A DNA stretch of 63,965 nucleotides, filler included, from Hausera hauseri (Eukaryota): assembly GCA_046269625.1 (NCBI GenBank). It is 12 parts of 12 records of this genome, joined end to end, with 100 filler letters (N's around TTAATTAATTAA, not from the genome) between each part and the next. Parts side by side here need not be neighbours in the genome. Positions count along the whole stretch, not along the records: positions 33,155 to 38,251 come from JBJURY010336492.1; 11 more parts are not named here. One strand, written 5' to 3'. Every line of letters starts with the position of its first letter. Within the stretch, counting starts at the first letter, position 1. Made by a program: the position numbers and the translations under genes. Shown here one piece after another: positions 13,401 through 59,180 of the stretch. The notes beneath the pieces are model-generated. The model saw nothing but the letters and a program-made list of their open reading frames with translations. It did no database searches and was not told the DNA's origin.

Positions 13401-13985
13401 CAATACGATAAGAATTTAGTGCCACTGAGTGAAACGATAACCAATGTCCCAAGACAGAAACGCCCAGTCGATAGACCTAAGAAGACACGAGAAGAAGCTG
13501 ACTATAATGGAGAATCGATTGGAGAATTGAGACAGATGCCGATTCCTACCTAATGAAGAATTAAGCGAATTCATGAAGAATTTAATATATGAATTGTAAA
13601 TTATTCAAGCCTTCGAGGCGACACATTAGACGATACAGAGAATGCGATATTTAATGCAGCTAGGATAATGAGAAGTTCACGTTTTAAATTATCAAAAAGT
13701 AACTTAAATGATGAATCGGTGATCGAGAAGATCATGGTGGAAAACACCGCTGAAGAATTAAGAAATGTATTAATGTGCTTAGCTATCAAAATGAACTCTA
13801 ATAGAGAAAATGAAATTAATAGAGCTACAAGCTTGGCACGTAGAGCGGCTAGAAAGCTACCCTGCGAAGTAAATTTGTCGAGATAATTCGATAATGAAGA
13901 AGACAAACCGTTCGATAATAGTAATAGTCTCGAAGATATGTTATGTAATTTGACAACGACAGATAATAGTAACCGGAAAAACGAA
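10472..13985 (+). pseudogene. Unknown ~1,150-aa K/E-rich region X, copy A
   Basis: Successive ORF pieces homologous to 24000-27710 and 49490-50447. Confidence 0.8.
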
Positions 13986-14525
13986 TCCAATTGGTTAATC
14001 AGCTTACTCACTTTGATAATGCTAATAAAGCAAATAGGTGCTGTTACCGTCTACGATTGCGATAAGTTTAAACTAGGACAGAAATATTCTCTAATGGACT
14101 TAGAAGTATGTGAGGACGCCAGACCACATAAAGTGGAGACAAAGGAGAAAAGTTACTTCTTATACCAAGATCAAGAATTAATATCGTTGGATGGGATGGA
14201 ATGTATGTTGAGACGATCTTGTAGCATTTTCACTGTGGTCTAATGCACGGACATTCGTCAATAATCAAACTAACAACTCCTCCAATTCCGATGAACTTGG
14301 AACGCCAGCATTGTGAGCAAGCCAGGAAAACCGGAAGATTAAAATGGGATAGCATGAAACTGGAGATGCAACCAGGAAAAATAATTAGAACACATAAAGT
14401 AGTGGTTGAAAGGCTGAACATGCATAATTGACAAAGTAATGGGGCCGAATACGCCACCGGAAAAGGATTAGAATTGAATGTACTGGTTGTAGATTTTTAT
14501 GAATCGGAGATGCAAGTACAGAAAG
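13986..14525 (+). pseudogene. Chuvirus-like glycoprotein N-terminus, copy A
   Basis: Hydrophobic signal WLISLLTLIMLIKQIGA, then VTVYDC...YSLMDLEVC...ECMLRRS..IFHCG..H.HSSI. Confidence 0.85.
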
Positions 14526-19008: not shown

Positions 19009-20150
19009 TTTATATTAGTTTCACTGGCGAAATTAGAATGTACAACGCTGTGTGTGTGTTACAGAACGTTTCGAAACTTTAAGTCTAAATTTTATTAGGT
19101 TCCCAAGCGCGTAGAACCTTGAAATTTTCTGGAGAGATGCATTTTTGTCCCTATTTTGATAATTCGTCGTTGAAATTTGAAAAATATTTTTTTAAGTATT
19201 TTTTAATATTTTTTTTTGTTTTTTCTTTTCGGAACTTTAAGTTTAAATTTAACCGTGTTCCGAAAAGCGTAGATGTTTGAAATTTTCAGGAGAGGTACTT
19301 CTTTGTCCCTATTTTTCGAATTCGTCGTTAAAATTTTTAAATTATTTATATAAGTACCTTTAAATAATTTTTTTTTGGATTTTTTTCTCTCGAGTCCTTC
19401 AAAACTTTAACATAAAATTTCAGCGACTTTACGAGGACGCACAGGTTTCAAATTTTCTGGAGATATAAATTTTTGTCCCTATTTTGATAAATCGTCGTTG
19501 AAATTTGAAAAATACTTTTTTAAGTATTTTTTTTTAATTTTTTCTGTTTTTTCTTTTAGGAACTTTATGTCAAAATTTTACCAATTTCCGTAAGGTGTAT
19601 AGCTTTGAAATTTTGAGGAGAGATAACTTTTTGTTCCTATTTTTCGTATTCGTCGTTAAAAGTTTTAAAATATTTATATAAGTATTTTTAAATATTTTTT
19701 TTCTATATTTTTTTTCCTTGAAGCCTTCGAAACTTTAACATAAAATTTCGCAGAATTCCCGACGGCGTACAACTTTCAAATTTTTATCAGATATCATGTT
19801 CTGTCCCTATTTTGATATTTCGTCGTTAAAAGTTAAAAAATATTTTTTTAAGTATTTTTTTTTTATTTTTTTCTGTATTTTCATTATAGAACTTTAAGTT
19901 GAAATTTAACCAATTTTCGAAATGCGTACAGCTTTGAAATTTTCATTACAGATGCTTATCGGTCTCTATTTCGATAATTCGTCATTAAAATTTTAAATTT
20001 CGGTACATTAGTATTTTTTATTTATTTTTAATTAAGAGTCTGTTTTCGACCTTCTGAATTAAATTGCGTAACCAATCAGCGTTGTCGTATTCCCTCCTCC
20101 CAAGCTCCACGTGACAGAGACGTATTTTACGTCACGACGTAATGTTCTAG
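19009..20150 (+). mobile_element. Non-autonomous Helitron/Helentron-like element with internal tandem array
   Basis: TTTATATTAG start, (TG)n microsatellite, six ~164-bp units, perfect hairpin TTACGTC-AC-GACGTAA (20127-20142), then CTAG (20147-20150). Confidence 0.6.
19073..20030. repeat. Tandem repeat, ~6 monomers with alternating 158/170-bp period
   Basis: AACTTT anchors at 19075, 19233, 19403, 19561, 19731, 19890; conserved CCTATTTT and TCGTCGTT cores. Confidence 0.92.
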
Positions 20151-27437: not shown

Positions 27438-28276
27438 ATGGTAATTGAAAAAATTATGGTAGAGAACACCGTAGAGGAGTTAAGGAAAGTGTTACTATAT
27501 TTGGCCGTTAAAACCAACCCGGTCCGAGATAACGAATTCAATAAGGCCATTAGCTTGGCGAGGAAGGCTGCCAGAAAACTACCACTAAAAGTGAATAGGC
27601 CTAAATTGTTTGAAAGAGAAGAAGAATGGCAAAATGGGTCCTTCCTTGGCAATAATAGAGTTGAAGACTTGTTACGGAACGTAACCAGAGATAATATAGG
27701 AAACGAGTCAAACTGGTTAATTAACTTCTTAATTATGATGATGTTAATAATACAGATGTGGGCAGTTGCAGTGTACGACTGTGACAAATTTAGACGCGGA
27801 CAAAAATACTCATTAATGGAATTAGAAATGTGCGAAGACGCGAGACCACATAAATTAGAAACAAAAGAGAAAAATTACATGCTATATCAACAATGCGAAC
27901 TAGTTACATTAGATGAAGTAGAATGTATGTTGCGACGATCTCGCAGCATTTTCCATTGTGGACTAGTACATGAACATTCACCCATAATCAAGCCAACCAC
28001 CCCACCAATCCCGATGAATTTAGAACGCAAGCATTGCAAGCAAGGTAGAGAGACGGGAAGAATAAAATGGGACGGCATAGAATTAGAAATTCAGCAAGGG
28101 CAAATAATCAGAGTGTATAAAGTGGCTGCTATGGTGCAGAATACGGCACTGGAAAAGGATTAGAGTCAAACATCGTAGTGGTAGACTTTTACGAAATCGA
28201 GATGCGCCTACAGAAGGTAATGTTTCATAGCGTTACTAAACTTTACACAGAAAACCATAAGTGCCACATTTCAGAT
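27438..28276 (+). pseudogene. End of X fused in frame to the chuvirus-like glycoprotein, copy B
   Basis: One ORF runs VIEKIMVENTVEELRKVL...NWLINFLIMMMLIIQMWAVAVYDCDKF...ECMLRRSRSIFHCG. Confidence 0.88.
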
Positions 28277-32405: not shown

Positions 32406-33344
32406 CAAAATGTTATGTTATTCCGATAGTATTACCAATCATTATTTGGCATTAGAAAATTGCAAAATACCACAACATGAATTACCTAAATGATCTAGAA
32501 AAATTAAATGTCCAATGTCATTATGAAAACGTAATTTTTAGTTGGTGGCTCTTCGACGGCTTCTTCATCATCATTCTGACCAGTAACAAGTCCAGTGGCA
32601 TGATTCTACGAAGGAAGGTAACGGGTCCCGACTAACGACACCGTCAAGACGAAATCGTCGCACCCGGCTATACCCGGACAAAATGGACCAGGGAGCCGCA
32701 ATGCACGGTGGACACCACAAACTGGTCTTAGAAAAAAACATCCCAAAAATTTGTTTTCTTTTCTCGTATTAGCCATATGAACATCTGTAAATAACTTTCT
32801 AAGCTTTTCGATAAAAACAACTCATTCTAAATCCATAGTTTGTCTAATCGAACTCTAAAAACGTTATTTTGACCTTGTAATATATTTCAACAACCCTATT
32901 ATACATTTATTGTAAACTTGACTCAAATCGGCATTACACGATTGATGTTAATTCCTATTTTTTCTTAACTAATGTTTGATCTGTTTTAATAAGTATATCG
33001 ATAATAAACTGTATATCGGTTTTTGTACATCAGTTTACATGATGTTCCAATTTGNNNNNNNNNNNNNNNNNNNNNNNNNNNNNNNNNNNNNNNNNNNNTT
33101 AATTAATTAANNNNNNNNNNNNNNNNNNNNNNNNNNNNNNNNNNNNNNNNNNNNACATTGGAAAACACATCGTAGCCTACACTGTTTGCTGTAACACGTC
33201 TCGGCACAAAGCATTCATTAACATTATTCTTATACCAATATTAAAATTACACGTATATTTATACTCGTTAATTGGGTTAATGAAAGAGGAAGAACGGTAA
33301 AACAACAAAATTTATTGATAAGTAAAATATGCTTCAGCTACACG

Positions 33345-34063
33345 CTAAATTGGGCTTTTGATATCGTCTTTTTCCTTGTATCCTTGTAACTCAATATTCA
33401 ATTGACACTTTAACCCACCACCATCATCATCACCATCGGATACATGGGACATTTCGTTACCTATAAAATCAAACAATTTCGTTTTCTGCGCCGGTAAATT
33501 GCCAGATTGCTGTTGCACGGTCGTTTCGTTCAACTTTAAATCAACGTTTAATTATGCAGAGCATCAGAAAGTTTATCCAAATTTTCACCAGAAGGCCGTT
33601 TCACACGACAGCTGTACTTGGGTACACATAGAGACACGGTATCATTCAAATAAATCAGTATGGGCGTTTGCAGGAAATGCATTTTATACTTTCGAAAAAT
33701 TCGTTTCGGTAAAAATATGTGTGTTTGGCGCGTCGGCGGTTTTGATTTTACTTTACGTATTCCAATCATTGCATTTTGCCTTTTTTTACGTCGGTTTTCC
33801 TGCTGCTGCTCCTGCTGCTGATTATTGAGCAAGTTCCTGTTTTGTTTCCAGACAATCACCCGGTTTTTCTAACTGTTGGACAGGTTCCAGCAGTTTGATA
33901 TTAGAACTGTCATTTTTGTAGCCAAACAACCACGATCAGTTTGAACTTTCATCATTGGCATCATTGAGTAGAACAGTTTTGTCGTTGTCGTCTTCCATGG
34001 CAGTAATGTCTGAATGAGCATGGGAATGATATTTATAGTTTGTTGTTGTGCAATGTACATCAT
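33345..34063 (-). pseudogene. Polinton accessory ORF (possibly PZ-like)
   Basis: Q/E-rich fragments, RVKRPSGENLDKLSDAL; position within the Polinton cluster. Confidence 0.35.
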
Positions 34064-34089
34064 TTTGATTTACTGCAGCATTTATGTGG

Positions 34090-34545
34090 TTTCTAATTCG
34101 ATTAATAATCGGTTCATAGTCTTTTGTCCGAAATTAGAGTACAACAATTTTTCCACTGCTAAACACATTGACATAAAATGGGCGAAACGATGTCAATCTC
34201 AGTGCAGGAAACAGTTTGGGTTCATACGTACATTCAGCAGTGGCCATTGCTAATTTGTACAGATTGATTGTTTGGTAGTCTTACTGAGTCGTTATTGTTA
34301 TTGATTGGATTTGTTCAATGACAATTGCGAATGGCAGTAGTTTATTGTTACTATAAGCTGTGATTGGTTTTTTTAACCCATAACACCACAATTTTCCAAT
34401 TGACATATCATACATGTAAAATCCAGTGGACAATTGAGGACATACTCCCTCTGCTTCCATTGATTAAAAGGTAGTGTGTTAATTTCACACTAGGTAACAT
34501 GTCCGCGATAGTTCATATTAGCTAAGATTATGGAAACAGTGTTTA
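34090..34545 (-). pseudogene. TATA-box-binding-protein-like gene within the Polinton
   Basis: Manual translation: IQSITITTQ*DYQTINLYKLAMATAECTYEPKLFPALRLTSFRPFYVNVFSSGKIVVL, against TBP repeat 2 (IQNMV...IRLEGL...YEPELFPGL...LLIFVSGKVVL). Upstream LANMNYRG...TCMICQLENCGVMG resembles repeat 1. Confidence 0.75.
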
Positions 34546-34628
34546 TACTATGGCTACTTATATGTGTGTGTAACACGATTATAAACAAATTATGTGGTGA
34601 GAAAAGGTTGTATTATTATTACTATTAG

Positions 34629-35290
34629 ATGAAGCTGCAGAATGAAGTCAGCTTCCAGATTGTAGGCCCCAGTAGAAGTGGCAAAACACACCTTGTGTGA
34701 AAACTGCTGAAGAACTATCGTGACATGTTCCATTCACCGCGGTACGATCACATATACTGGCATCACGGTGTTGGTGATAATGGTGAGTCCGGTCTGACAC
34801 ATTGGAATTTTGTAAACTGAATTCGATAACGATAATTGATGGGTTTGATATAAACTGGTCATAGAGATTATGCAACGGCGAAGATATTGTCACTGACTAT
34901 TTATTTCAGGAAGCCGCGAAATAATCGGACTTCAGCAAACTGTTCACGAAGATTGCACGACACCGTAGTGTGACGGTTATTTTCATTACGCAAAACATGT
35001 TCCATCAGGGCGTCTGGCATCGAACAAGAAATCTAAACGTACACTATTTGGTGTTGTTCAAAAATTCCCGTGATCAGACTATCATTGATTATGTTCCCCG
35101 ACAAGCATTTCCTTACAACCGAGCCTACTTGATAGATGCATATCATGATGCTACGAACTAACCACATGGATATCTGTTTATTGACTTTATACAACAGGGT
35201 ACCGATGGCATGTGTGTACGAACAGACATTTTCAATCAGAAGGGTATATGTGTCTATAAACAAACTCGAAAATCGACGACATTAGTGTGA
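34629..35290 (+). pseudogene. Polinton A32/FtsK-like packaging ATPase
   Basis: Walker A IVGPSRSGKT; LFTKIARHRSVTVIFITQNMF; LNVHYLVLFKNSRD; PHGYLFIDF. Confidence 0.93.
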
Positions 35291-35475
35291 TAAAATGAAG
35301 AATTTCCGAAAAACAGCTGTAAAGCGTAAACCTACCAAGCACGTGTCCGGCGACAAGAAACGTGCATCAAAACTAACCACCGCTACAGTCAATAACTAGA
35401 CGCAAATTACTGTCTCAGTGGCAACGCTAATAAACAACTACGTCTCATTAGCATCAATACGTCCATACAAAAAGC

Positions 35476-35810
35476 ATGCGATTCAAACGTAAGCAGCCGT
35501 ACTTTATTGCTTTGCTCAAGGCACCTACAAGACATAAGCGAAACATGCTGCGATCATTTCCACAGTTTGTAGTAGGCGATTTGATGGAAATTTTATACAA
35601 TATTGTTGTGGGTCACGTTGACATTGGTAGAGGAAAGCGAAATTTACTAAAGTATTGAAAACGACTTATTGGCCTTGTCAACGCCCGTAGTAAACGACTG
35701 AAACGGGAGGTCATGTACCAGCAAAATGGCAGATTCCTTGGTGCAATTCTACATATTGTCACGTCATTACTTGGTGCACTCATTGGTTCTACAGCCACAG
35801 CATAGTATAA
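35476..35810 (+). pseudogene. Polinton small basic ORF with amphipathic C-terminus (GasderminX/PW-like)
   Basis: LMEILYNIVVGHV...QQNGRFLGAILHIVTSLLGAL. Confidence 0.6.
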
Positions 35811-35956
35811 ACAATGACTGTAAGTATATGGTAATTTGGAGATATGGGTGCATGGTATTCATCTTTTTGCCACAGTTTACCAAATCTTTCATTTATGTTT
35901 CCTTCTAACTGTTGCAATGCAAACAAAACCGGCACCATCGACTACGACAAAACCGA

Positions 35957-36983
35957 TGGGCGACGTGTGTTTCGACATGTGTCGTCCCGTCGGCTATACC
36001 GGCATTGACAAACTGGCAAAGACTGTCAAACAGACTCGGTAACAGACCCGACGTTGGCTCGGGAAACAGTTAGAATACAGCCTAAACAAATAGATAAAAA
36101 GGCGGATTCCAACTCGTGCATACAGAGCTGTCGGTGTGAATAACATATGGCAGATGGATCTAATGGAAATGATTCCGTACGTCAGCATCAACGATGGGTA
36201 TCGTTACGTGCTTATATGTGTTAATGTGTTTAGTCGTTTTGCACGTGCAATTGCCGTGAAATCCACGCTGCAGAGGTACTGATACAACAGCAACAACGAG
36301 AGCATTTACAAACGGATTTGGGTAAGGAATTCTACAACGCCCATGTTGCAGCGGTCTTGAAACGGTTCGGCTACTTGGTGTTTTGAAACCACTTCTCGGT
36401 GTTTTCCAAATACAAGGCTGCACTCCTTAAACGATTTAATTGAACATTGCGCTATCGCCTAAACAAATTCTTTAAGGAGCAAGATAATAAACGCTGGGTA
36501 GATGTACTGCCGGATATTGCTTATGTGTACAATCATTCGACACACCGTGGAATCAACGGAATGCGCTCGGTTGACTCAGTCGGTAATTTGGATATGTGGC
36601 TTTATCAAAACCGAACAACACAACAACGACGATGACCCAATAAACGTCCCAAGTATAAAATCGGTGATAATGTACGTATTTTAAAGCTGAGTACAACACC
36701 ATTTATTGAGAATTTCAATCAGAACTGGAGCGATGAGGTTTTCCGAATTTCGGCAATAAACACAAAACGAACATGTGTTATGTACATTTTAAAAGATAAA
36801 AATGGTGACAAAATACGTGGCAAATTTTAAGAGCAGGAACTGCAAGTAATACCGGAAAAACCTGATGTGTATCGTATTCAGGAAATTGTACGTTAACACG
36901 GGAAGGGTTCGAATAAACGACATCTCGTCAAGTGGCACGGATACACTATACTGAGTTGAATATTTGCATCGCAGATTGAGTGA
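35957..36983 (+). pseudogene. Polinton rve integrase with chromodomain-like C-terminus
   Basis: PVGYTGIDKL; WQMDLMEM...NDGYRYVLICVNVFSRFA; YNHSTHRGI; NWSDEVFRI; YRIQEIV...LVKWHGY. Confidence 0.92.
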
Positions 36984-37400
36984 TGAGCATTTATTTGATA
37001 CTTGATAGTAACAGATTATTAGAACATGACAACAACAACATTACCGCTAAACAGGTTACCATAGCGTTGAACCAGCCGCTCAACTTACTCCAAGGATCCT
37101 GGGTGGTGGCTTTGGCTGAATTCACGTTTACATTTTTACCAATAACAATACGTGAGAACAGTCGAATATACTGTACTCTAGTAAGACAATCTCCTGCAAC
37201 TAGTCGTTTGCAGTTAGTTTGAGACTCTAATGGAACATTTTACGTTCGCAATTACAAGCGGCAATATTTTCCGGTTTATATCTTTTATTTAACAATCGAT
37301 TGGTGCTAAAACACAAACATCCGACTGAATTGCAATTTAAATCACTAGCCGACGCTCAGGCATGGGGTTTTCAATTATCAGCCAATGTGCGTTCGAAAGG
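36980..37400 (+). pseudogene. Polinton minor capsid (penton)-like
   Basis: IYLILDSN...IALNQPLNLLQGSWVVALAEF. Confidence 0.7.
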
Positions 37401-37499
37401 TTTACAGCTCGAAAGGTTTTACACAGTATAATTAGTGAAAAATTGAAGTTTTCCACTGCGTAAACCACCGATATAACAGTGAACTGGCGAAAGATTGAA

Positions 37500-38251
37500 T
37501 CATTCTTTTTCTCTCATACAAGAGTAATTGGATTTTAACATTATGGCATCGGGCAACGAATACCTGAATTTGAACGATACGCTATTATATGTAGAAGTCA
37601 TTGTTAAAAAGGACGCGGCAACGGTTCTCGCTGCAACAGACACTGTCACACCGACCAATTACCTTTTCCTCACACTTTTCCAGGAGGCTTCACTGACTCT
37701 AAACAGCGTCAAAATCGAAGGCAACACAAGTCTATACAGTATTAAAGCACTCATTGAAACGGCTCTGAATTACACTACTAACACCAAAACGACTCACTCG
37801 ATGAGAACTATCGGATACGATGCCACAGCGTCAAACCGTCAGGCGTGGGTGGCAGAATCAAAAGCACTTACCATGAGTGGACCGCTGTACTTTGACTTTT
37901 TTAATCAGCCGAAATATCTACTGCCCGGTGTTAAAGCCATGATTCGGCTCAAACGCGGCGACAGTGTCCTTTGTTTGAAAACCACCGTTGCAAATCTCAA
38001 ATCCATACTGAAAATTACCGAGGACGATTATACGTACGTTTAGTAAAGTTAGAACCATCTGTGCTCATGGGATATCGATTGGGCTTGGAAACGCAAAATG
38101 CCTGTAACCCGATACAACCCGCAGAACTTGCCTTTTACACCATACTTAAAGGTTTGACTACGTTTTGAAAAGATGCACTGTTTGGTGACATGCGATTGCC
38201 GAAATTTGTGCTCGTTACATTTCAAACGACTGTTCAACAAACGGGCAGTTA
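37500..38251 (+). pseudogene. Polinton major capsid protein (double jelly-roll, PY)
   Basis: DFNIMASGNEYLNLNDTLLYV...PTNYLFLTLF...YSIKALIETALNY...DFFNQPKYLLPGV...LYVRLVKL. Confidence 0.9.
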
Positions 38252-39177: not shown

Positions 39178-42100
39178 AGTCCGATTTCGAAATAAAAAAA
39201 ACTAAATTCCATATATAAATTATTGTATATGTCTAAGAGTAGTGGCCATTTTTCTTTCCGATCACTACGTAATGCAATCCAATCGTATTCTTGTAAAATA
39301 TTTGCTCCTCCATGAGTTGAACCGGTTACTCGAACATTTAGACTGGAATGAAATCTTGTAAGGTTGGAAATAATAATCGGCAATTCAACATTTATGGCCC
39401 ATACAAGTCCCCGTATGTTAGTTGAGAGGTGGCTAACAACTAACATGTGAGCTCGCAATTCCAATTCCATGTCATCTTGATAAATAAATCTTTCAAGCCA
39501 TCCAACGAACATATATCATCATCTATGTCTCTTGACGCTTTATTTATAGTTACCATGCATTCCTGAACATCTCCCCTAAACATTAAGAAATCAAAACTAT
39601 CTTTATGTTCTGACATTAATCCGTATGGATGTGGAGGTAATATCAATTCTCTTGATTTATATTTTCCTTTGTTCGACATTCTAAAATCGTCTGGATCATT
39701 AAATACTACAGTTCGCAGTTCATAACTCGTAAAGTAGTCCATTAAGCGTTCGTCTAAAGTTCTACAGTATTCGAGGTTATATTTTTCTTTCCAGGACTCA
39801 CAGAAAAAATTAACAGAATTATTATTGGCTAGTTGTTCGAAATGAATTGGCAGATATAAAAGCCGAGAAAATAACATGTACCCAGAGAATCCCATATGCA
39901 AAATATTGAAAGCTTCCATTGTTAAATTGTTGACAACTGCATCATCTTCACAAGCTTCTTGTAAAACGTCAATTGCTGCTTCTGATACTCCAGGGTCAGT
40001 GTCATGTATTTGCTTCAATAAAAAGCTTACTCCCCCATTAGCAAAATATGGTAATTTTGCCCTTAAAAGTACTCTGAGAAATTTTGTTGTATATTGACGA
40101 ATGCACACAATGGGTGAATTGACGGCAACTGTCAACAGATTTAGGTCTATAGATGGACGCGTATAATCAAGACACCCGAGTATCAAATTTGCATAAACAT
40201 CACTGGATCCATAATCGAGTAACAGTTTAAAAATATGTAAAAATTTATATTCTTCCAAAAGTGCTTTGCCGAATTCTGTTGAAGTCATTCGACCAAGAGG
40301 AGGAAACTTATACGAATTACATTTGTAATTAAATTCATATTCGCTAAATGATGAATCTTCAAACATCGCGTCAGTAGTTGCATATATTATAAGTTGTTTA
40401 TAATCATATGCTACTCCGTATTTCAGACATTCACGAAATGATCTATTCATAAATTTTAAAAACCGAACCAACTCTTCACTAATGGTCGAATTTTTGGTTG
40501 ATTGAACTAAACAATTAATTATATCGATAAGCACAAAATTGGCTTTTAAAGAAAAACTCCATGTCAGCTGCAGAGGTACAAAATACTGTTCCGCGTAACT
40601 TAAAGAGTCCATAATGGACTTGTCGGATTTTGGATTTTGAATAAAAAACTCCAACAGCCTTTTCAATATTCTGTTGATTACATCTCTAACGAAGTTTGCA
40701 GACATTGTAGAACTTTGAAGGGCTCTTGCAAAGATCATTAATAAATCCCAGTCCCATAAATTGTAAAATTGTTTAGAATGATATAAAGTGTCATCTAAAA
40801 CATGACTGAAACGTTCAGCGAGTTCCAGTAAAACATTGAACTTTTGACTTTTACTATTCACTGACGAACTTTTCTTCGATGCTAAACTTGTAGGGACGTA
40901 GCAACTTTCAAGAATATTATCTATGTTTGCCGGATGAATAAATGTCATAGAAACGGATAGTCCGTCATTTATAGTACTTATTGGCTGAATAATAGAATTC
41001 ATCAAAGGAGTGATATCAAAAAGCTCCTGTTCAAGTAAACTGTGGATTTGATGCATCCATAATATGGTTTTTTTCGATCTAGGATGAGTGAAAAGTGTAG
41101 CTGTATCAATTTTATTAAGAAGTGGATGATCTGAAGAAAGTAGAACCGAAGCTTTATAAGAAAGTATGACTAGAAGAAGACCTGCTCTGACAGACTCATT
41201 TTCATTTTGCACAGCAGTTGCAAGAGCTTCAAGAAGATTATTTTGAACAAATATGCCTATAACAATGACGTGGGAATTGTCAAGAATTTTGATTCGATTT
41301 GCGGATAAATAAGGTAAACAATCGTAACATTGTGTCACAAAAGATTCATCATCGAGTCGCCAAGACGGTATGTATTTGCCGTTTTTTTGATCTTCGATTG
41401 ACTTAGTACAAGTACGGAAATCCTCAAATTCTGGAGGGGGTCGAAAAACGTGGAATAACTGAAATAATAAAACTAAAATTCTCTTCCTAATATTAGTAGA
41501 GCCCATTTTCAAGAGACTAGTTAAAAACAAAATTGTCTGGCTGCTACGTCCATATAAATAGAGAAATCCTGGCCAAGAGTGAAGTATTTTCAATAAAACA
41601 AAAATAGAATGTGTTTCAACTTCCCCATGATCATCATTGAAAGCCCTCGAATCCTCTTTTGGAACTGACGAAAGATCATACAATATTGAAAATGGTGCTA
41701 AGGATCTATGGAAATATCCATCGGGTATGTGACTCCGAAATAACGGGTGGGAAACAAGCTTACGCAGCAACAAAAGGACTGCTTCGATTATGTTTAAATC
41801 AAAATTAATAATTAGACCTTCTTTGATGAAAATGGCTGTCTGAAATGCTTCTAGAATTTGACTCTGATGTATTAAGTTGGGAATAAAATTGGTAAGATGA
41901 AATAATATCATCAAGGTAGGTCGTAATGCTGGGTCAATCGGTGTAATATTGCATTTTGAGCATGTTACACAACTACCAACCATACAATTTACAATATAAA
42001 TTAGAATGAGTTTTGGCAGAATCAAAACTAATCTAAACAGCAATCTCATGGCCGGAATTCGCTCAACGTCCCTTTTATTATAATACTGTGGAGAAACGGC

Positions 42101-42801
42101 ATCGTGATACGATAGATCCAAGGATTGTCTTAGGAAAAATTCAACTATCATTTTCACACAAATTTCCGAATGACGGCTATTTAAAACATGATATCGTAAA
42201 CATCGCAATGTTGCAACTCTCGGTGATTTATATTGACTCCATAAACAATATTTAATTAATGAGTAAATGGATATCATAAAATGGATATCATAGACCAATA
42301 CATTCAAATAAGAAATACATGTTTCCAAATCATATTCAAAGTCATCATTGCAAAATTGTGATAAAATTTTGGCATAACTAATTACAGCATCATTAGACTT
42401 TTAATTTTTGCTAAATCAAAACTATTTTCCTTATCACTACGTCCTACTTTTATTACTACATTGATAAATGAATCTGATTTATCACATATTGTGAACATGA
42501 CAAAAGTGTAACGATTTGGGTTGTTGAAAGGTAAATTTACATTAATAGGCAGACAGTGATGTGGGTAATAGTCGCAGTGTGTTCCAAAAACAAAAGTCTG
42601 ACTAACCAATGTCGTTCGATTAAAAATCACGGATTTGTGTCCCGAAATGCATGAAAGCCAATCGTATGATTGCTGACACCAATTATAATGATCTGCGGCC
42701 GAAGAGTTCTTAAAATTATTAGCAAAAAGTATAATAATGTCAGGTTTAACCTGCATTTTTGGGTGCATGGAAAACGACTTTGATATTTCCAGAGGCACCA
42801 A
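39174..42801 (-). pseudogene. RICTOR: RICTOR (mTORC2 subunit), divergent; a 962-aa ORF with frameshifted flanking pieces
   Basis: VATLRCLRY; ERIPAMRL; ILHSWPGFL; IRQYTTKFLRVLLR; LLKQIHD...AIDVLQEAC; LPPHPYG; in the next frame ELRAHMLVVSHLST...SLNVR...GANILQEYDW...WPLL. Frame changes at ~42390 and ~39480. Confidence 0.9.
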
Positions 42802-43024
42802 NNNNNNNNNNNNNNNNNNNNNNNNNNNNNNNNNNNNNNNNNNNNTTAATTAATTAANNNNNNNNNNNNNNNNNNNNNNNNNNNNNNNNNNNNNNNNNNN
42901 NGAAAAAATTAGATAATTGTAAAGTTTGGAGTATGAAGAGTATAATTATGAATATTACAAATTAATGAAGATTTATAAAAATTGAAATAATAAATGTAAA
43001 AAATGAAATAAAAAATTAAAAGTA

Positions 43025-43130
43025 CCATTCTAAAAATGGAACTAAACGACATGGTGTCGAATATTCCAATTTTAAAAATTCAAAAATTCCATTTCTAAAA
43101 ATGGAAACAAACGGTATGGTGTCGAACGAC
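43025..43130 (+). repeat. Two-copy ~64-bp tandem repeat
   Basis: CCATT(T)CTAAAAATGGAA..AAACG..ATGGTGTCGAA at 43025 and 43089. Confidence 0.75.
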
Positions 43131-44764
43131 CCAGTATAAATACCTTTGCAAAACTCTCTTAAAAACTCTCTCGAACCTATTAAATTTAACTTTACGGACT
43201 ACAGACTAGGTTAGACCCTACGTTAGTTTATAAAATTATTGCTATTAGGAAATTGACCATGGCTGAACAACATGATCCTTACGACCACAATTCTACAGAA
43301 GGAGTAACAGGTATGCGTCCTTTCAGATTATTTGCGATTGTATTTTAATTTTTATATTTTTGTATAAATTTGTATTTATCAATAAATATTTTGAAAATGA
43401 AATTGAATTGGAATGGGGTAGCGATGGATAAGGTGTTGTGAACAATCGGAAGATCGGACGGTGATACTAAGAAAGCGATGATTAGAGGACTGAAAGTTGT
43501 TTGGAAAAATTCAATGAATCCGAAAGTATGACGAAACCGATGGAAGATATAAATATATGATTGAAAGTTGTTTAGAAATCAGACGACTAGAAATTATGAT
43601 GATGGTTAAGTAATACTATAAATAAATGTGTTGACGTTTATTATGTTTCAATTGTAGTATGAATATTAATAATAAATTTAACATAAAAACAGTCAACTTT
43701 AAGCTGATTTATTTTTATGAATTTCAGGGGTTGATTGTATCCAGGACAAGTCGATAAGACTTGGTAATTGGAGGGTGAAAACTTTTGATAATACTTGTCA
43801 CTGTGGTGTCAGTTCGTCATGTAATTCGGGTTGAAATGGTCGTGTTGATGATCGTGATTGCAATTTAAATTTAAGAATCGACTGTATACGACCAGCGGAA
43901 TTGGATAATGTTAACATATGCTACAGATGCGACATGCAGAGGTCATTAGAGAGCATGCGTCTATTTATATGTATCATAACAATCAATAGCAAATAACGGA
44001 ACTGACCGCGTCTACATTTAATTATAGCGTATAAGAAATTGATATGTTAGTAATCGACATGATCATGTACTCGTTTTCATTTTCAATATGAATTTTGACT
44101 GTATGTATGAATTTTGAAGTTACTCATATGTGGAAGTTACTGGTATGTGTTTTGGGAATTCTGAGAGTGATTCTGGTTTGCATGTGGAATTTGATGAATA
44201 TACTCATCTATGGACCTGAGTTAACTTAGGATTTTCGTGTCAGAAAATAATCGTTTGAACTTCCACTTTTTACATATTCCACATCTATATGGGTCAGCAT
44301 GTTAAATGCATCAACTTAATAATTGCTTGATTGTGAAACACGCATTTCAACATTTTTGTGTCAGGATTAGCGGGAGTTTTATGGGGATTCTGCCGTTCCA
44401 TTATGTCGAAATTTGCAGATCTTATGGACAATGATGCTAGTGAGAGTTGAAGGATAATGCTTTGTAACGAGATGTGCCTCTGTGGTATTAATTCAATGTC
44501 CCGATATTGTGCTGTTTACCGAAGTGACCATCGAATTAAGTTTAGATCAAATTGTGTGCAGTTTCGAACCTTGTATGACTGATTTAAGTTCGTGTATAAA
44601 TATAATATCATAGCTTGAAGAGCTATCAACTCGGATATATAGGTGTAATATAATAGTTTAAATGAGTGAATATAAATATATCGTCAAAGTACGCATGTGT
44701 TACGTATTGATAACATTCGTTTTATAATTAGAAGTGAATTTAAACTTGAGATTAATATAAATAA

Positions 44765-45000
44765 ATTTTGGTTAGATAATTTTCTTTTATTGCTTATTCA
44801 TCAAATCAAATTTGGAATTAATATAATTAAATTTTGAGTGAAAAGATTTCCTTTTATTGATTATTCATTAATTAAATACGAGATCGGTGCAATTAGACTT
44901 TTGGACGAAGCGATTTCCTTTTATTGATTAGATTTGAAATCAATATAATTATTTTTGGACAGAACGATTTCCTTATATTAATTGTTCATTAATATCACAT
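44765..45000 (+). repeat. Degenerate ~55-66-bp tandem repeat, four copies
   Basis: Recurrent TTT(C)CTTTTATTG.TTA core. Confidence 0.7.
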
Positions 45001-45017
45001 TTGTATTAATTACGCAA

Positions 45018-45030
45018 TGGTGACCGCAAT
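45018..45030 (+). promoter_or_regulatory. Possible PBS of a separate plus-strand LTR element
   Basis: ...TACGCA A TGGTGACCGC; downstream gag-like EYLHDFEEMVDPW and integrase-tail-like PFKVIKYINP remnants. Confidence 0.35.
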
Positions 45031-45468
45031 CTTTTATCTTGTATTAAATGCCCCGTTTAATTATGCGAAACCCGTCGGTAGAAGATGTCGCGGATAACAT
45101 ATACAGTATTGGGAAATTTCGAATATTTGCATGATTTTGAAGAAATGGTCGATCCTTGGGAGGAACAGGAGAGATGAATCAACTGGTGAAGAATGTGGAG
45201 CAAGTGGAGCAATCATGATCATCGGAAGGAAAAATGCATTTCTTGCAACGAATAAAGGATCTAAAGGAGACCCATGCGCCGACGATATGAAATTGTTCTA
45301 AGAAGGAACATTAGTCTACCCTCAACTCACGAAATCCTTCAGATATTGGAGACATCCGAGAATAACCTTTTCAGATATTGAAGGCAACAAGATTATTGGT
45401 AGACGTGAACTCCTACGGATTTATATGTTAGGTACCATTTAAGGTTATCAAATATATTAACCCCTGTA

Positions 45469-46158
45469 TCACCAACACCAATGTCTCAGTTCTTTTTGGT
45501 TCTGAGGTTCCATACAGTCAGAAATTTTGTTCAGCAATGATTTATCTGGTTTCGATCCTCCTTCGCCAACTATATGACCAAGGTAGGATACGGCATTTTG
45601 AGCCCATTTACATTTCTTTGGGTTTAGCTTTAATCCAGCTTGTTCTAGTCTCATTAGAGTGTCCTCAGTATCCTTTATATGCTCTTTTTCGTCTTTTGAT
45701 GCAGTCATTACATCGTCTATGTACGCAAATGCATTTTCAAGTCCCATTAGCAACTTATTCATCATCCTGGTAAATATGGCTGGTCCAGTGGTAATTCCAA
45801 ACGGCATAACGTTGAATTCGTATATGCCATCATGAGTTTTAAACGCAGTCTTATAACGATCTTCATCTTCAATTTCTACCTGCCAATATCCGGATTGTAA
45901 GTCCAGAGTAGTGAACCATTTTGCTCCAGAGAGCCTATCTAGAGCTTCTTTCACAGATGGTAAGGGAAAAGAATCTTTCATTATGACAGTATTTAATGCT
46001 CTGTAATAGATACAAAATCGATGTTTCGTGGTTTCTTTCTTTCTGACCATAAGAATAGGTAAGTACCATTATCTAATACTAGGTCGAATTATATCGGCCT
46101 TTAACATACGTTTTACTTCTTTAGTTATTTACAGTCTTAGATAATGCAGTGGCGGATA
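45469..46158 (-). pseudogene. Ty3/gypsy reverse transcriptase (truncated before RNase H)
   Basis: EVKRMLKADIIRPS; FCIYYRALN; LDLQSGYWQV; KTAF; VMPFG; AYIDDV; LKLNPKKC; YLGH. Same frame as the protease ORF. Confidence 0.95.
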
Positions 46159-47376
46159 CTATTTTGGCAATTTCTGTTCCTCGAGATCAATTTCATAGTT
46201 AGAACCAGGCTTTTTCTTAAGAAGTATAGTTAATTTCAATGCCTTTGCGCGACCAATATTTTCTTTGTCTTTTGCAATAATTAATTTATATCGACATAAT
46301 AATTCGTAAAACTGGCAATAAGCTTCTGGCGAAAACTTCGTATCGACGTGTGGTGGAAATTCTGCGTATTTATACGGTTTCTCTTCGACCGTTATCGCTG
46401 ATACCTTGTAGGTTTGTCCTAGAGTAGTGTTAGCATATAACTTTACTGGAGTTTGAGCATTATTCACTATCCTCACAGGTATTCGACCGGATGCTACTCG
46501 GGTTAATATATTGCTTAATATTATATTCGGGTTTAGCGTTTCTTTCGGCTCGAAATATACTGGTATATCGTCGTCTTGACAAATTTGTGCAAATATTAAC
46601 AATTCCGTTCTAGGCGGAATGTTCTTGTCAACCGGAATCCATACTTCTCCGGTTTCTCTTTCTTTATTAACTTTAGTCCCTTTTATCGGTCCGAGCTCGA
46701 TTAACTTCGAGGTATTTAGATCTATCGCGACGTTTGTTAGACGTCTTAATACATCACATCCGATTACTACGTCGTCTGTTAAATGTTCCATTATAGAGAA
46801 TTCATGTTGGAACGTCTGTCCCATTATTTTAAGACTAGATTTCCATTTGAATTTTGGTCTTGATTCTTGTCCGAAAGTTCCTATACGTCCGGGATCGGTT
46901 GCAAGTGGCGGTCTTAATTGACTTCGCAGTGTTTTCGGTATCGATCCGTCTTTTATAAATGATCTCTGTGATCCGGTATCTACTAGTGCGTAGACTTCCC
47001 AATCGTCAATACTAATTTTTGCGAAAGGTCTACCTTCCTTTATCTTAGGTTGTTTAGTGACGGATATCTTGTAACCATTTATATTAATTTCTGGTGCTTT
47101 ATTTTCGGCTACCTGCCGTAGTTCCTCAATAGGATACAATCCATTATTCACACCGTTTTCGTTGTCTCGGTCCGGTGTATTGCTTAGCGGTTCTCGGTTG
47201 TCTTGATTACGGAAGGATTGCATTCGTTGATTATCCCAATTTAATGAGTTGGTTTCTACGCTCCGTGAAATCCTTGGAGAGTATATTATCTTGCGATCAT
47301 CTGCTGGCCAGCGACATAATTCGGATTTTTCTCTGGTTCGGTACATTTTTCGTAGCATGCCGTATTGTTTTGTCAC
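46159..47376 (-). CDS. Aspartic protease plus beta-rich PR-RT linker
   Basis: ALVDTGSQRSF; DVVIGCDVL; IPPRTE...IPVRIVN...VKLYANTTLG. Confidence 0.92.
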   Translation of the reverse strand: MTKQYGMLRKMYRTREKSELCRWPADDRKIIYSPRISRSVETNSLNWDNQRMQSFRNQDNREPLSNTPDRDNENGVNNGLYPIEELRQVAENKAPEININGYKISVTKQPKIKEGRPFAKISIDDWEVYALVDTGSQRSFIKDGSIPKTLRSQLRPPLATDPGRIGTFGQESRPKFKWKSSLKIMGQTFQHEFSIMEHLTDDVVIGCDVLRRLTNVAIDLNTSKLIELGPIKGTKVNKERETGEVWIPVDKNIPPRTELLIFAQICQDDDIPVYFEPKETLNPNIILSNILTRVASGRIPVRIVNNAQTPVKLYANTTLGQTYKVSAITVEEKPYKYAEFPPHVDTKFSPEAYCQFYELLCRYKLIIAKDKENIGRAKALKLTILLKKKPGSNYEIDLEEQKLPK

Positions 47377-49516
47377 TTCATAGGGATCTTCATAACTGAA
47401 AGGCTTCCGATATATTTCTGAACTATAGGGTTAAGAGATCTCTTATCACTGTCTTCGTATTGCGGCGCCGAAGGGGGCAACATTGGTAAAGGCGGCCTAA
47501 GCGCCTTATGATTGCTTGTCTTGGAGACCGCGTCTCCTCCCTTAGGCTCATCATCATCCGAATGGTTTCTTCGGACTTTTGTATTTCTTTGTCTTATAAA
47601 AAATGTAGATTTTCTCTTTCGTTTTCGATTGTAGTAACTGACATGTCTCTCCACGTCGCTTTTTCATTTGTTTTCTTTGTAAGCTTTCAGAAATTTTCCA
47701 AACGGCGTTATAATTGACGTTAAGATTTTACACGAAAATCCGGTTAGAGTAAATATTTCATATCCATTTATGATAGATTGTATTATAGTCTTTACGAGTT
47801 GTACCATAAAGTAGATGGCTAAAAATCCTGATGCAGCTTGTCCGAAAATTAAAAATTTTCCCCAAATCTTATATAATATTTCTGTGGTGACTCTTTGATA
47901 ATGGTTAACACCAAGTAGGGACTCACATTTTGCTTGATAGCGAGTATCGTCCATCACAGTCGACATGGCTCTATTTAGCTCATGCGTGCGCTGTCGAGGA
48001 AAACTGTCTAAAAGCTTCAATTTCCTTTGGTCTGTAAATCCCTTTACTCGTGGTGTCGGCGAATTTATCATCTGTTATACCTTTTAGTAAGTTTGTTCCC
48101 GTTAATTTGCCAGGTGTAGCTATTATTCCTCCATTTGGCAGACTTACCCAATCTGTCTCGCTTCTTTTAAACATAGGTTTGCCTAAACCTGCTTTGCAAT
48201 CTTTGTGTCGCGTTTTCTAGAAGGACTCTAGTGAGTGGCATAGCCAATCGGGGTACATTTTGATATATGACTGGCAATTCTTGTATACAACGTTTTTCTT
48301 CTACGTTTAAAGATACGTCTCGTTTTTCGCATTCGTAGGTCAACAGGACTTCTCCGGTGACTCTTCCGAAAATACCTTCCTTCATCGGAATTACAGGTGA
48401 TGCTAGTTCTGGGTTCGCGTAAATTAAGGCCAATTTGGTTCTCATGATCTCCATATCCAATTTACAATCGTTTGCAATTATTTTGTAATATAGCTCTGCT
48501 AACCCAATTTGTCCTTTATAATAGAAGAAGTCGTCCCTATTCTTTAAATAATCTTCTATTCTTACATCTTGTGTTTCCAAATTGAAGGTAGTTATTGCGG
48601 CCTCTGCCACAAAGAATGCCTCGTAATTGATGGCATACATTACTACGTTGCACCGAGAAAGCATTTGTTTTTTTATGAATTTCAATCCGTGATCCTCGGA
48701 TATCAGTATCGTGGGTGTGGAATGCTCAGCGACGTTCTTTCTTGGTCTGGCGTTATTGTCAGTTGTCTCTACATACCTTTTTCCTGTGGTTTCATTGAAA
48801 TTTATTTCCTTGATTTTAATAAAGTTACAATCGTTCATAAGTGGTGGAGCCCAAATGACTATTGAGTTTCTGAAAGTGCAGGCACCATCTTGGTTATGGC
48901 ACTTTTGGTTTTCGGTACGCGTTTTCGTAATACTATGGTACATCATCTTTTGGTTCCTCATTTCTGTTTCGTAGAAATCGACCACTATTATTCCCGATTC
49001 TCTTCCTTTTCCGGTATCATATTCACCTCCTTTACAGTATCCGGTGTGCATATCCAGTTTTCCGATTGCTACCTTATATACTCGATTTATTTTTCCTGGT
49101 TGGGCCTCTAACTCCATCCCATCCCATCTTAATCTTCCAGTTTCTTTAGCTTGTTTACACTGTTGTCTATCTAAATCTATGGGTATTAGCAGTGTCGTCG
49201 GTTTTACTATCGACGATTGTCCGTGTATGTTTCCGCAGTGGAAAACACTTCGCGATCGTCGCAACATGCACTCTATTCCGTCTATTGCAATCAGTTCACG
49301 TTGCTGGTATAAAAAATACTTTTTCTCAATGGTTACTAACTTGTGAGGTCTAGCGTCTTCGCATAATTCCAAATCCATCAAGGAATATCTTTGTCCGACC
49401 TTAAACTTATCGCAGTCGTATACGGTGATTGCACCGAGCTGTCTTATTAACATCATAAGTGTTATTAGTTTAATCATCCAGATTGATTCACTGTCTCGCA
49501 TTGAGTTAGTTGGCAT
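47373..49516 (-). pseudogene. Full-length chuvirus-like class III fusion glycoprotein (~700 aa; two frameshifts, one stop)
   Basis: Signal peptide; ITVYDC..SLMDLELC; ECMLRRSRSVFHCG; GYCKGGEY; LYYKIIANDC; GIFGRVTGEVLLTYEC; CIQELPVIY; PLTRVL; TM region IWGKFLIFGQAASGFLAIYFMVQLVKTIIQSIINGYEIF..TGFS.KIL. Confidence 0.85.
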
Positions 49517-50547
49517 TAAATTTCTTACAACATCTTCGATTCCGGTGGTTGGCCTGTTTCCATCTTTGTCATCAAATAACTTGGATCAATTTATCTCTCT
49601 AGGTATCTTCCTAGCAGCTTTTCGGATAAATCCAATAGTTCTATTGACTTCATTTTCCTTTCGCGAATTCGTTTTGATTGCCAAGTACAATATTACTTTC
49701 TTTATTTCTTCCTTAGTATTCTCTACCATAATTTTCTCGATTAGAACTTAGTCTGATAAGTTGCTCTTATTCATTTTCAACAGAAATGTTCTCATAATTC
49801 TCGCAGCATTATATATTGCTTTTTTTTTCGTTTATCATCTTGTCTCTCGGTCCTGAATAGTTTACTATTTTCATAGTGTATCTCAGCAGATCGCTTAACT
49901 CTTCGTTCTCGGAGTTAATAGCGGGCATGGATAATTGCCTTAGTTCTCGTGTCAGGGCTGCACTTTGGTCAATATCGTTACTTATCTTTTTCTCGACCTT
50001 CCAACTAGTCGTTTCTGTTTCGGCGCAGTTGGTGTTGCTTCGCTTATTGGTACTAGATTCTTATCGTATTGTTCCTTATCTTTCTCACTCTGGAGGTAGT
50101 CAAAATACATGACAGGGTCTCTGACTCCCATAATGCGTCCTACGCAATGTTCATCTCTTACTTTTCTCGCAGCCTCATCTTTTGTCTGTTCGTCGGTAAT
50201 TATGGCCACTATTTGATTTGTTTCTTCTGAAATAATTCCAACATCTGTTAGTAGTTCGGGTTCGTCCAGTATTCTACCTCGAAAATATAAACGGTAATTT
50301 ACTTCATCTTTTTCACCGTTTCGCATTATTCATTGCTTTACTGCTCCAGCCGATGTCGTTGTACATTCATTTTCTTATTCTTCCATTTCTTCAGCCGATA
50401 TTTTTACATTAACCGTCGTTTTGGGTTTAGCTTTTAAGAATTCAGCGNNNNNNNNNNNNNNNNNNNNNNNNNNNNNNNNNNNNNNNNNNNNTTAATTAAT
50501 TAANNNNNNNNNNNNNNNNNNNNNNNNNNNNNNNNNNNNNNNNNNNN

Positions 50548-54901: not shown

Positions 54902-55019
54902 AGTAGGGGGAAAATACCGCTTCTGGCTCAAACCCCCCCGGGGGGGGGGTTGGATCGATAAATCGATTTGCACATGTGCCGATCGATAGAGCACCCGGAA
55001 CACTATCGATCCATAAAGT
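54902..55019 (+). repeat. Interspersed element terminus, copy 1
   Basis: AGTAGGGGGAAAAT...ATCGATAAATCGATTTGCACATGT...CTATCGATCCATAAA, shared with 58802-58912. Confidence 0.8.
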
Positions 55020-58801: not shown

Positions 58802-59180
58802 AGTAGGGGGAAAATGGCGGTTCTGGCCCACCCCACAGAGGGGGGTAATCGATAAATCGATTTTGCACATGTTACAATAGATAGTGCACACTGTGCCCTA
58901 TCGATCCATAAAATGCCTAGCAACGCTGCCGCTGGGCACCGTTGCTAAGGACACTTTTGCACTTTTCACTTATCGATCGCTGCATAGTGCAGTATTGATC
59001 GAATCGATCTGGACAAAGTACTAATAGATAGAGCACATCAAAGCGCATCGATTGGTGCACAGTGCCAGTGTGCAGCACATGTGCAAGTGTGCAAGAATCA
59101 AAAATATTGAATTTTCAAGTTTTCAAAAATCGATCTTTGGGTCTCGAGACCGGGTGCAATCGCAAGTGCACTTGATGTTG
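58802..59180 (+). repeat. Interspersed element terminus, copy 2, rich in ATCGAT/GTGCAC palindromes
   Basis: Homologous to 54902-55019 and starting at the same AGTAG. Confidence 0.8.

Follow-up and report, generated by a model that had tools for sequence, protein, structure and literature searches.

Genes of the element contig

The window, i.e. the whole stretch of 63,965 nt from Hausera hauseri (GCA_046269625.1), consisted of 12 contigs joined by N44-TTAATTAATTAA-N44 linkers, and genes on the two sides of a linker are therefore not genomic neighbours. The contig under study (33155–38251, 5.1 kb) was delimited by its N-run linkers and proved, by gene content, to be the interior of a decayed Polinton/Maverick (adintovirus-like) element; the termini, pPolB, the protease, terminal inverted repeats and a target-site duplication are not on it, as it ends inside the element. 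Gene order: minus strand – a downstream ORF and a TBP-like gene; plus strand – ATPase, small ORF, pX-like ORF, the putative integrase, the probable penton gene and a putative major capsid gene. The contig is a Polinton/adintovirus-type element, and every gene on it was broken. Assembly error as the source of the broken frames was ruled out, since the contig that follows carries an intact RICTOR frame of 945 aa.

The A32-like packaging ATPase pseudogene (34629–35290, plus strand) was located by tblastn of the intact relatives P0123 and P0124 (61–77%); it contained a frameshift near 34805 and stops at 34698, 34862, 34922 and 35159. Intact ATPase relatives (75–77% identity) exceeded the Pfam Pox_A32 cut-off, as befits a Polinton ATPase. 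Downstream of it on the same strand, a small basic ORF (35295–35400) was followed by an ORF of ~110 aa (35476–35805) with one stop and a hydrophobic pX-like tail at its end, which we take to be a candidate likeness of the 'GasderminX' of Beta-class adintovirus modules. The putative retroviral-like integrase (35920–36980, plus strand) gave Pfam rve at E 0.0008–0.0017, under the gathering cut-off. The probable minor capsid protein (penton; 36983–37430, plus strand) was assigned by position and by an N-terminal pattern, so that the label is presumptive. The putative double-jelly-roll major capsid gene (37440–38251, plus strand, start approximate) was truncated by the contig end; its first Atlas match (0.98, with PF21738 DJR-like clusters) serves as a lead, the family share being 12–37%. 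No Pfam match was obtained for five of the genes (the downstream, small basic and pX-like ORFs, the penton and the capsid); for the capsid and the ATPase, searches against PDB sequences were uninformative. The downstream ORF (33250–33998, minus strand) was characterized by an acidic N-terminus and a Cys/Trp-rich middle; lying beside the TBP-like gene, it could be a partner of the latter or an Oncoid-type gene.

The compact TBP-like pseudogene was found on the minus strand at 34032–34528 by the Pfam TBP profile, solved TBPs, tblastn of the intact relative P0003 and a two-lobe profile. The earlier note had placed a TBP-like gene at 34090–34545; the gene was recovered and its span corrected to ~34032–34528. 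The peptides quoted there were present on the minus strand in a single frame, and the shortened first repeat was real, tblastn of P0003 showing it in a second frame: 34528–34376 was aligned at 61% identity and 34397–34032 at 62%, with the N-lobe at ~34528–34376 and the C-lobe at ~34397–34060. The short first repeat is not a product of decay, because intact relatives have it too. With X at the stops, the window copy gave E 4.4e-9 and 36.5 bits (cut-off 22.9) in the Pfam TBP search that the note had proposed, matched 36 sequences of solved TBPs at E ≤ 10 (best E 4.7e-10), and scored 29.6 bits with an independent two-lobe TBP profile vs a maximum of 3.9 in 100 contig shuffles; tblastn and the profile revealed no second TBP-like copy in the window.

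What the note had passed over is the decay. The locus is a pseudogene that has decayed like its Polinton neighbours: three stops (34492, 34283, 34136), a shift of frame at ~34376–34397 and the absence of an ATG from the homologous start make the copy here a dead one. The K of the YEPKLF motif occupies a position that is acidic in 120/120 of the best 120 of 355 relatives and is therefore ascribed to decay, by which the second glutamate of the TFIIB-binding acidic pair was lost in the window copy. The TBP-like gene and the ATPase diverge, as had been reported, from an intergenic region of 100 nt (34529–34628; one TATAAACA per strand), which sets the distance to the ATPase ATG (34629) at 100 nt instead of ~85 nt. 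The core of the note, a Polinton-type element with a compact TBP-like gene divergent from an A32-like ATPase, was thus borne out.

The compact TBP family

The first search for relatives yielded 13 matches among 17 candidates (best 63% identical; nearest relatives 62–63%). By a profile search, 355 clusters were collected at E ≤ 1e-10 among 2301 candidates; the best 120 of these were 131–213 aa long (median 151) and came from ENA, Logan, JGI and MGnify, none from NCBI or UniRef, and some of the remaining 235 clusters may be other TBPs. A search of the 50% library gave 54 matches reaching 1e-30 and 633 reaching 1e-10; six canonical-length matches from it were excluded from all analyses, and the taxa given by the Atlas for the family (1–8 members) were disregarded. 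Among 62 pattern matches in GTDB genomes there was no relative of the mini-TBP, and phage records gave no match. The intact relative P0003 scored 59 bits with Pfam TBP (cut-off 22.9), and the archaeal profile NCBIfam PRK00394 gave 41.6 bits vs a cut-off of 181. Identity of the compact family to solved TBPs was 19–27% (20–27% to yeast, plant, human and microsporidian chains), in place of the high identity of a canonical eukaryotic TBP.

In the AF2 model of intact P0003 (pLDDT 95.4) the C-lobe was complete, and the N-lobe consisted of four strands with no helix of at least 4 residues. Foldseek against PDB returned 44 matches at E ≤ 0.001 (best E 1.8e-8, TM 0.70), those among the matches listed all being TBPs or TBP complexes; the next match after rank 44 had E 0.07. 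Comparison with TBP gave VIA Z 12.9 and rmsd 2.6 over 147 residues, the next non-TBP fold having Z 6.5; the structure prediction proposed in the note thus returned the two-lobe TBP saddle. Viral TBPs fitted the model less well than cellular TBP. Spacings in the N-lobe had medians of 37 + 20 residues in the best 120 of 355 relatives vs 47–49 + 30–34 in six two-lobe TBPs, the deletions of the compact form amounting to ~10 residues between N69 and F116 and 10–14 residues between strand 5 and the C-lobe; the C-lobe span was unaltered (47 in relatives vs 45–47 in the six two-lobe TBPs). Helix H2 of the N-lobe, the carrier of the basic patch of canonical TBP, is thus absent from the model. In Ravarani 2020, this patch is given as the binding site of TFIIA, TAF1, Mot1 and Brf.

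A longer relative from the wider family, P0317 (173 aa), had both helices in its model and aligned over its full length to two-lobe TBPs; since it was folded in the same way, the loss of helices in the compact form is no modelling artefact. The wider family of 160–190 aa (P0314, P0317, P0345, P0357, P0371 and others) was observed to have the odd DNA-face residues of the compact form together with both N-lobe helices. The picture is one of stepwise erosion, with the compact form as its apparent end point.

Residues were counted in the best 120 of 355 relatives, with yeast numbering from PMC12529657 (Table 1). Equivalents of F116, F190 and F207 were kept in 120/120 each, N69 and P191 in 112/120 each. 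Phenylalanine was missing at the F99 position, so three of the four intercalating phenylalanines of canonical TBP were retained (each 120/120); the loss of the fourth could weaken bending. Five positions were altered and yet near-invariant: V71>N (115), V122>R (119), T124>M (120), N159>S (118) and L205>N (120 of 120). The stirrup glutamates, for which we assume the position numbers E186 and E188, were present in 116/120 (+4 D) and 120/120, respectively; among 118 matches from the 50% library with a recognisable stirrup, it read E-x-E in 97 and D-x-E in 8. The two stirrup glutamates bind TFIIB; in other viral TBPs, which are accompanied by a TFIIB of viral origin, they are ~40% conserved (Ravarani 2020). 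The same paper gives Trp at the N-lobe position L5.1 as the mark of TBPL1/TRF2 paralogues; the compact family had Phe at the F116 equivalent in 120/120, L5.1 being equated by us with F116.

In a quick tree of 89 rows, composed of the family and six two-lobe TBP outgroup rows (one of the six passes an archaeal cut-off) and built without eukaryotic TBP or TRF2, the window copy grouped with P0003/P0004 (support 92) inside the compact clade (96), which was nested in the wider family (99) and stood apart from the six two-lobe TBPs. The case of a recent fragment of host TBP (which the note had named as fatal to its claim) or TRF, or else of a chance match in one element, draws on the copy being a pseudogene and single in the window. 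It is opposed by the 61–63% identity to colinear intact relatives vs 19–27% to solved TBPs, a level too low for a recent host fragment, by the placement in the compact clade, by the absence of introns and decay like that of the Polinton neighbours, and by the pairing of relatives with the ATPase described below; it was rejected as scarcely credible. The window copy genuinely belongs, as a dead member, to a large family of Polinton mini-TBPs that is essentially undescribed.

Linkage to the ATPase was assessed by a proxy, namely the same source and an exactly equal size of the longest contig for TBP-like and ATPase matches. In this way 16 of the best 120 of 355 TBP-like relatives paired with ATPase relatives (best 120 of 285), whereas the null of 200 offsets gave a mean of 1.3 and never more than 5; among relatives on contigs of at least 10 kb the fraction was 4/8, among those on contigs below 1.1 kb 0/31. 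The paired relatives were scattered across the compact clade in the tree. One contig of 1130 nt leaves 32 nt beside both genes, which implies adjacency. For one of the 16 pairs the contig is too short to hold both genes, and this pair failed the overlap test, which leaves 15 (control passed); the overlap test for gene orientation was negative in all 16 pairs, overlap being required in one pair only, since dropped. A Mantel test of TBP vs ATPase distances in the 16 pairs was not significant (r 0.15, p 0.16). By the contig-size proxy, the mini-TBP is linked indirectly to this ATPase family in elements elsewhere.

TATAAA(C/T)A boxes at gene boundaries

A new observation was the occurrence of TATAAA(C/T)A at the gene boundaries of the element, echoed in relatives. 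The word TATAAACA was found on the minus strand at 34540–34547, facing the TBP-like gene 19 nt before the homologous start, a short distance for a TATA box (further TATA-like words were seen at −34 and −55), and on the plus strand at 34580–34587, 49 nt ahead of the ATPase ATG; at 35255–35262, within the last ATPase codons (Y-K-Q) and 40 nt ahead of the next ORF; and at 35806–35813, immediately 3' of the pX-like stop and before the integrase region. The variant TATAAATA was located on the minus strand at 34030–34037, at the 3' end of the TBP-like gene and 39 nt before the downstream ORF, and at 33256–33263, near the end of the latter, where the following gene, if any, is mostly beyond the contig. 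Each of the six marked a gene boundary and had the orientation of the gene that follows; in addition, TAATAAACA was found 46 nt upstream of the pX-like ORF. As a separate observation, a TATATGTGT word stands ahead of two plus-strand TATAAACA boxes (34558–34571 and 35243–35252), the upstream peptide of P0008 being compatible with it; it is possibly a second promoter element.

On the contig TATAAACA occurred 4 times (0.46 expected) and TATAAAYA 6 times (0.91 expected), counts reached in 0/300 shuffles each, vs 2 occurrences of canonical TATAWAWR (2.5 expected), which was not enriched in the element contig. Corrected tests were applied, the motif having been found after looking: a shared-word test over 7 starts, corrected for post hoc choice, gave p 0.004 (7-mers), 0.026 (8-mers) and 0.037 (6-mers), and over eight starts, one of them picked after the motif had been seen, p 0.0002–0.002. 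Window-wide TATAAACA was not enriched (9, of which 4 on the element contig, vs 5.8 expected; 14/100 shuffles reached 9), and two AT-rich contigs unrelated to the element contained 4 and 8 copies of TATAAAYA.

In 21 relatives whose predicted ORF extends into upstream DNA, the read-through peptides were compared with the motif in a window of 8–24 codons before the true start that was set after looking, such peptides giving compatibility and not DNA: TATAAAYA-compatible – 8/21 (null 1.5), and TATAAA – 15/21 (null 5.8), p 0.001; canonical TATAAAWR – 8/21 (null 3.5), p 0.012; antisense or palindromic use was unsupported in the same set (5/21, null 2.5, p 0.08). In the best 120 of 285 ATPase relatives the conserved end read Y-K-Q (Y in 119, K in 118, Q in 115), beyond which the tail varied; Y-K-Q is the peptide of TATAAACA and may reflect a protein constraint rather than a DNA motif, the ATPase matches having been ranked by likeness to a query that bears Y-K-Q. 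The motif was not found within 10–65 nt of the penton or major capsid starts. The genes before which it does stand are the ATPase, the TBP gene and small ORFs; the role in late gene expression that the note had considered is therefore unsupported.

The mini-TBP is a plausible promoter-recognition factor. It might instead be a general stand-in of ordinary TATA specificity, replacing a host TBP that is scarce or substituted by a paralogue (e.g. in germ cells), with the motif as the plain TATA box of the element. The motif is one base off canonical and bindable by canonical TBP, the upstream peptides of relatives fit TATAAAWR as well, and Polinton inheritance should demand germ-line activity. By the title of PDB 1qn3, canonical TBP can bind C at that motif position, and host TBP could thus serve. 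The stand-in has against it the five DNA-facing positions changed and near-invariant over the best 120 of 355 relatives (~45–55% identity), as well as the lack of enrichment of canonical TATAWAWR in the element, and it is regarded as distinctly unlikely compared with recognition of the boxes by a mini-TBP of altered specificity.

Proposed mode of action, precedents and other features of the window

To our knowledge, transcription of Polinton genes is essentially unstudied and reliance on the host is assumed. In active elements, a protein of ~150 aa, predicted to fold as a two-lobed TBP saddle, would sit on TATAAA(C/T)A boxes, which lie ~20–50 nt ahead of gene starts. In TBP a C-lobe proline reads the first T of a TATA box; the near-canonical C-lobe would accordingly take the 5' TATA half and leave the unusual 3' half to the remodelled N-lobe; we presume that the N-lobe reads the 3' half, where the C lies. 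The conserved E-P-E stirrup would recruit host TFIIB and, through it, host RNA polymerase II, and the loss of both N-lobe helices would leave no hold for TFIID (TAF1), no help from TFIIA and no eviction by Mot1/BTAF1. Without contact to TAF1, TFIIA and Mot1, a private, host-regulation-proof entry into transcription would thus be gained. We infer that the mini-TBP binds the boxes, recruits host TFIIB and Pol II, and activates transcription while escaping TFIID/TFIIA/Mot1 control, with a probability of roughly 0.55. The family of intact mini-TBPs in similar elements suggests that these switch on their own genes via the host transcription machine. A fuller version was put somewhat under even odds: a widespread Polinton clade would combine the smallest two-lobed TBP in these searches with a matching TATAAAC/TA promoter into one-protein private initiation via host TFIIB/Pol II, free of any host-regulatory surface, the N-lobe having been eroded stepwise from the 160–190-aa family.

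The same features also bear on the view that the mini-TBP is a decoy or repressor which occupies TATA boxes or soaks up host TFIIB, silencing host genes (in defence or silencing) or damping those of the element, host TBP transcribing the latter. An invariant TFIIB stirrup without TFIIA/TAF1 surfaces fits a dominant-negative protein too, a TBP that cannot be evicted could block promoters, one intercalating Phe is lost, and a box faces the gene of the mini-TBP itself, as in autorepression. TBP together with TFIIB on DNA is, however, the productive route to Pol II, and the half of the element motif that deviates from canonical TATA is the one presumably read by the altered N-lobe; the decoy was judged unlikely, and initiation through host TFIIB was preferred to it.

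The adapter could also be another one: the Brf1/Brf2 of the host (Pol III) or, as in giant viruses, a TFIIB-like protein, encoded by the element or by a helper virus. According to Ravarani 2020, Brf1/Brf2 use the same glutamate and nearly all TBP-bearing viruses carry TFIIB; as 5.1 kb of the element was seen, most of it lying beyond the contig, and one flanking ORF is without a Pfam match, a viral TFIIB may be situated elsewhere. On the other hand, Brf1/Brf2 also bind the N-lobe basic patch, which is deleted here, viral TBPs with their own TFIIB let the glutamates drift (Ravarani 2020), and the ORFs of the 5.1-kb contig gave no TFIIB match in Pfam. Such an adapter was considered very improbable, and host TFIIB was retained as the presumed partner.

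Compared with known systems, the mini-TBP shares with cellular TBP (PF00352; yeast, human, archaeal) the two-lobe saddle, the E-P-E stirrup, F190, P191 and F207 of the C-lobe and the N69 and F116 equivalents; it differs in its length of ~150 aa, the absence of both N-lobe helices and of F99, polar substitutions on the DNA face, 19–27% identity and an F190–F207 spacing of 16 vs 17 (three of six two-lobe TBPs). Herpesvirus vTBP (KSHV ORF24, EBV BcRF1, HCMV UL87; beta/gamma) is likewise a TBP mimic of a nuclear virus that works with a variant TATA box and the Pol II of the host, with polar residues at hydrophobic TBP sites (V122, T124, V161 and L205 change in both); KSHV ORF24, however, has 752 aa, keeps all four Phe, is without the TFIIB glutamates, binds Pol II directly and depends on five partners, whereas the mini-TBP is a bare domain with a TFIIB stirrup. 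Nucleocytoviricota TBPs, as treated in Ravarani 2020, have a viral TBP fold without the eukaryotic N-lobe signature and gave structural matches in BFVD; they show ≤19% identity to the compact model, the named ones among the matches listed have at least 186 aa, and their TFIIB glutamates are variable and co-evolve with viral TFIIB, whereas those of the mini-TBP are fixed, with no TFIIB on the 5.1-kb contig. The VLTF3-like genes of a subset of polintoviruses/PLVs are a precedent for a transcription-factor gene in Polintons; they belong to an unrelated family and provide no TBP-fold basal promoter factor.

The note had left open whether such a gene was unreported. The sole prior mention found was a 'TBP' label in the legend of Fig. 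5 of Starrett 2021 (PMC8502044; preprint 10.1101/697771), given to an unnamed MELD virus with adintovirus-like PolB; among the matches listed the family is otherwise undescribed. In the portions of that paper that were available, the label is confined to the legend, the text giving no element, family, structure or promoter, and part 1 of the supplement contains no TBP; the protein may belong to the same family as the mini-TBP. Term searches of the main text found no TBP in PMC11161782, PMC10748475, PMC11131425, PMC8097293, 10.64898/2026.06.19.733378 and 10.64898/2026.10.13.758929, mentions of TBP in PMC7786948, PMC11464507 and PMC12085832 were unrelated, and a term search of PMC12917281 returned no passages. 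The supplements of PMC11131425, PMC10120064 and PMC10748475 were without TBP and the available part of that of PMC7221094 without a Polinton term; bioRxiv supplements, Repbase and subscription journals were outside the scope.

With this copy dead, it is the family that is of value. The mini-TBP offers a natural test of the modular TBP model, the TFIIB lobe being kept and the regulatory lobe deleted; if the proposed action is true, it would add a third way in which viruses capture Pol II to the TBP–TFIIB pairs of giant viruses and the TFIIB-bypassing vTBP of herpesviruses. As a conserved element-encoded TBP is accompanied by a candidate cognate promoter, a direct test is possible with one small protein and one 8-mer.

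On other contigs of the window, the uninterrupted 945-aa RICTOR frame (39440–42277, minus strand; Pfam RICTOR_N and RICTOR_M; mammalian RICTOR 2e-48) represents an unusually long exon or an intron-poor host gene; judging by the mammalian match, the host is probably an animal. LTR retrotransposons with a Monjiviricetes (chuvirus-like) fusion glycoprotein were present on at least 3 contigs (45469–49516, minus; 13938–14243, plus; 27438–28163, plus), the glycoprotein lying upstream of the protease and RT on the contig 42902–50447 and downstream of gag on the two others. A tandem array at 19015–20029 had a period of ~328 nt (158 + 170), and related repeat ends, beginning with AGTAGGGGG and ATCGAT-rich, were found on separate contigs at 54902–55017 and 58802–58912.
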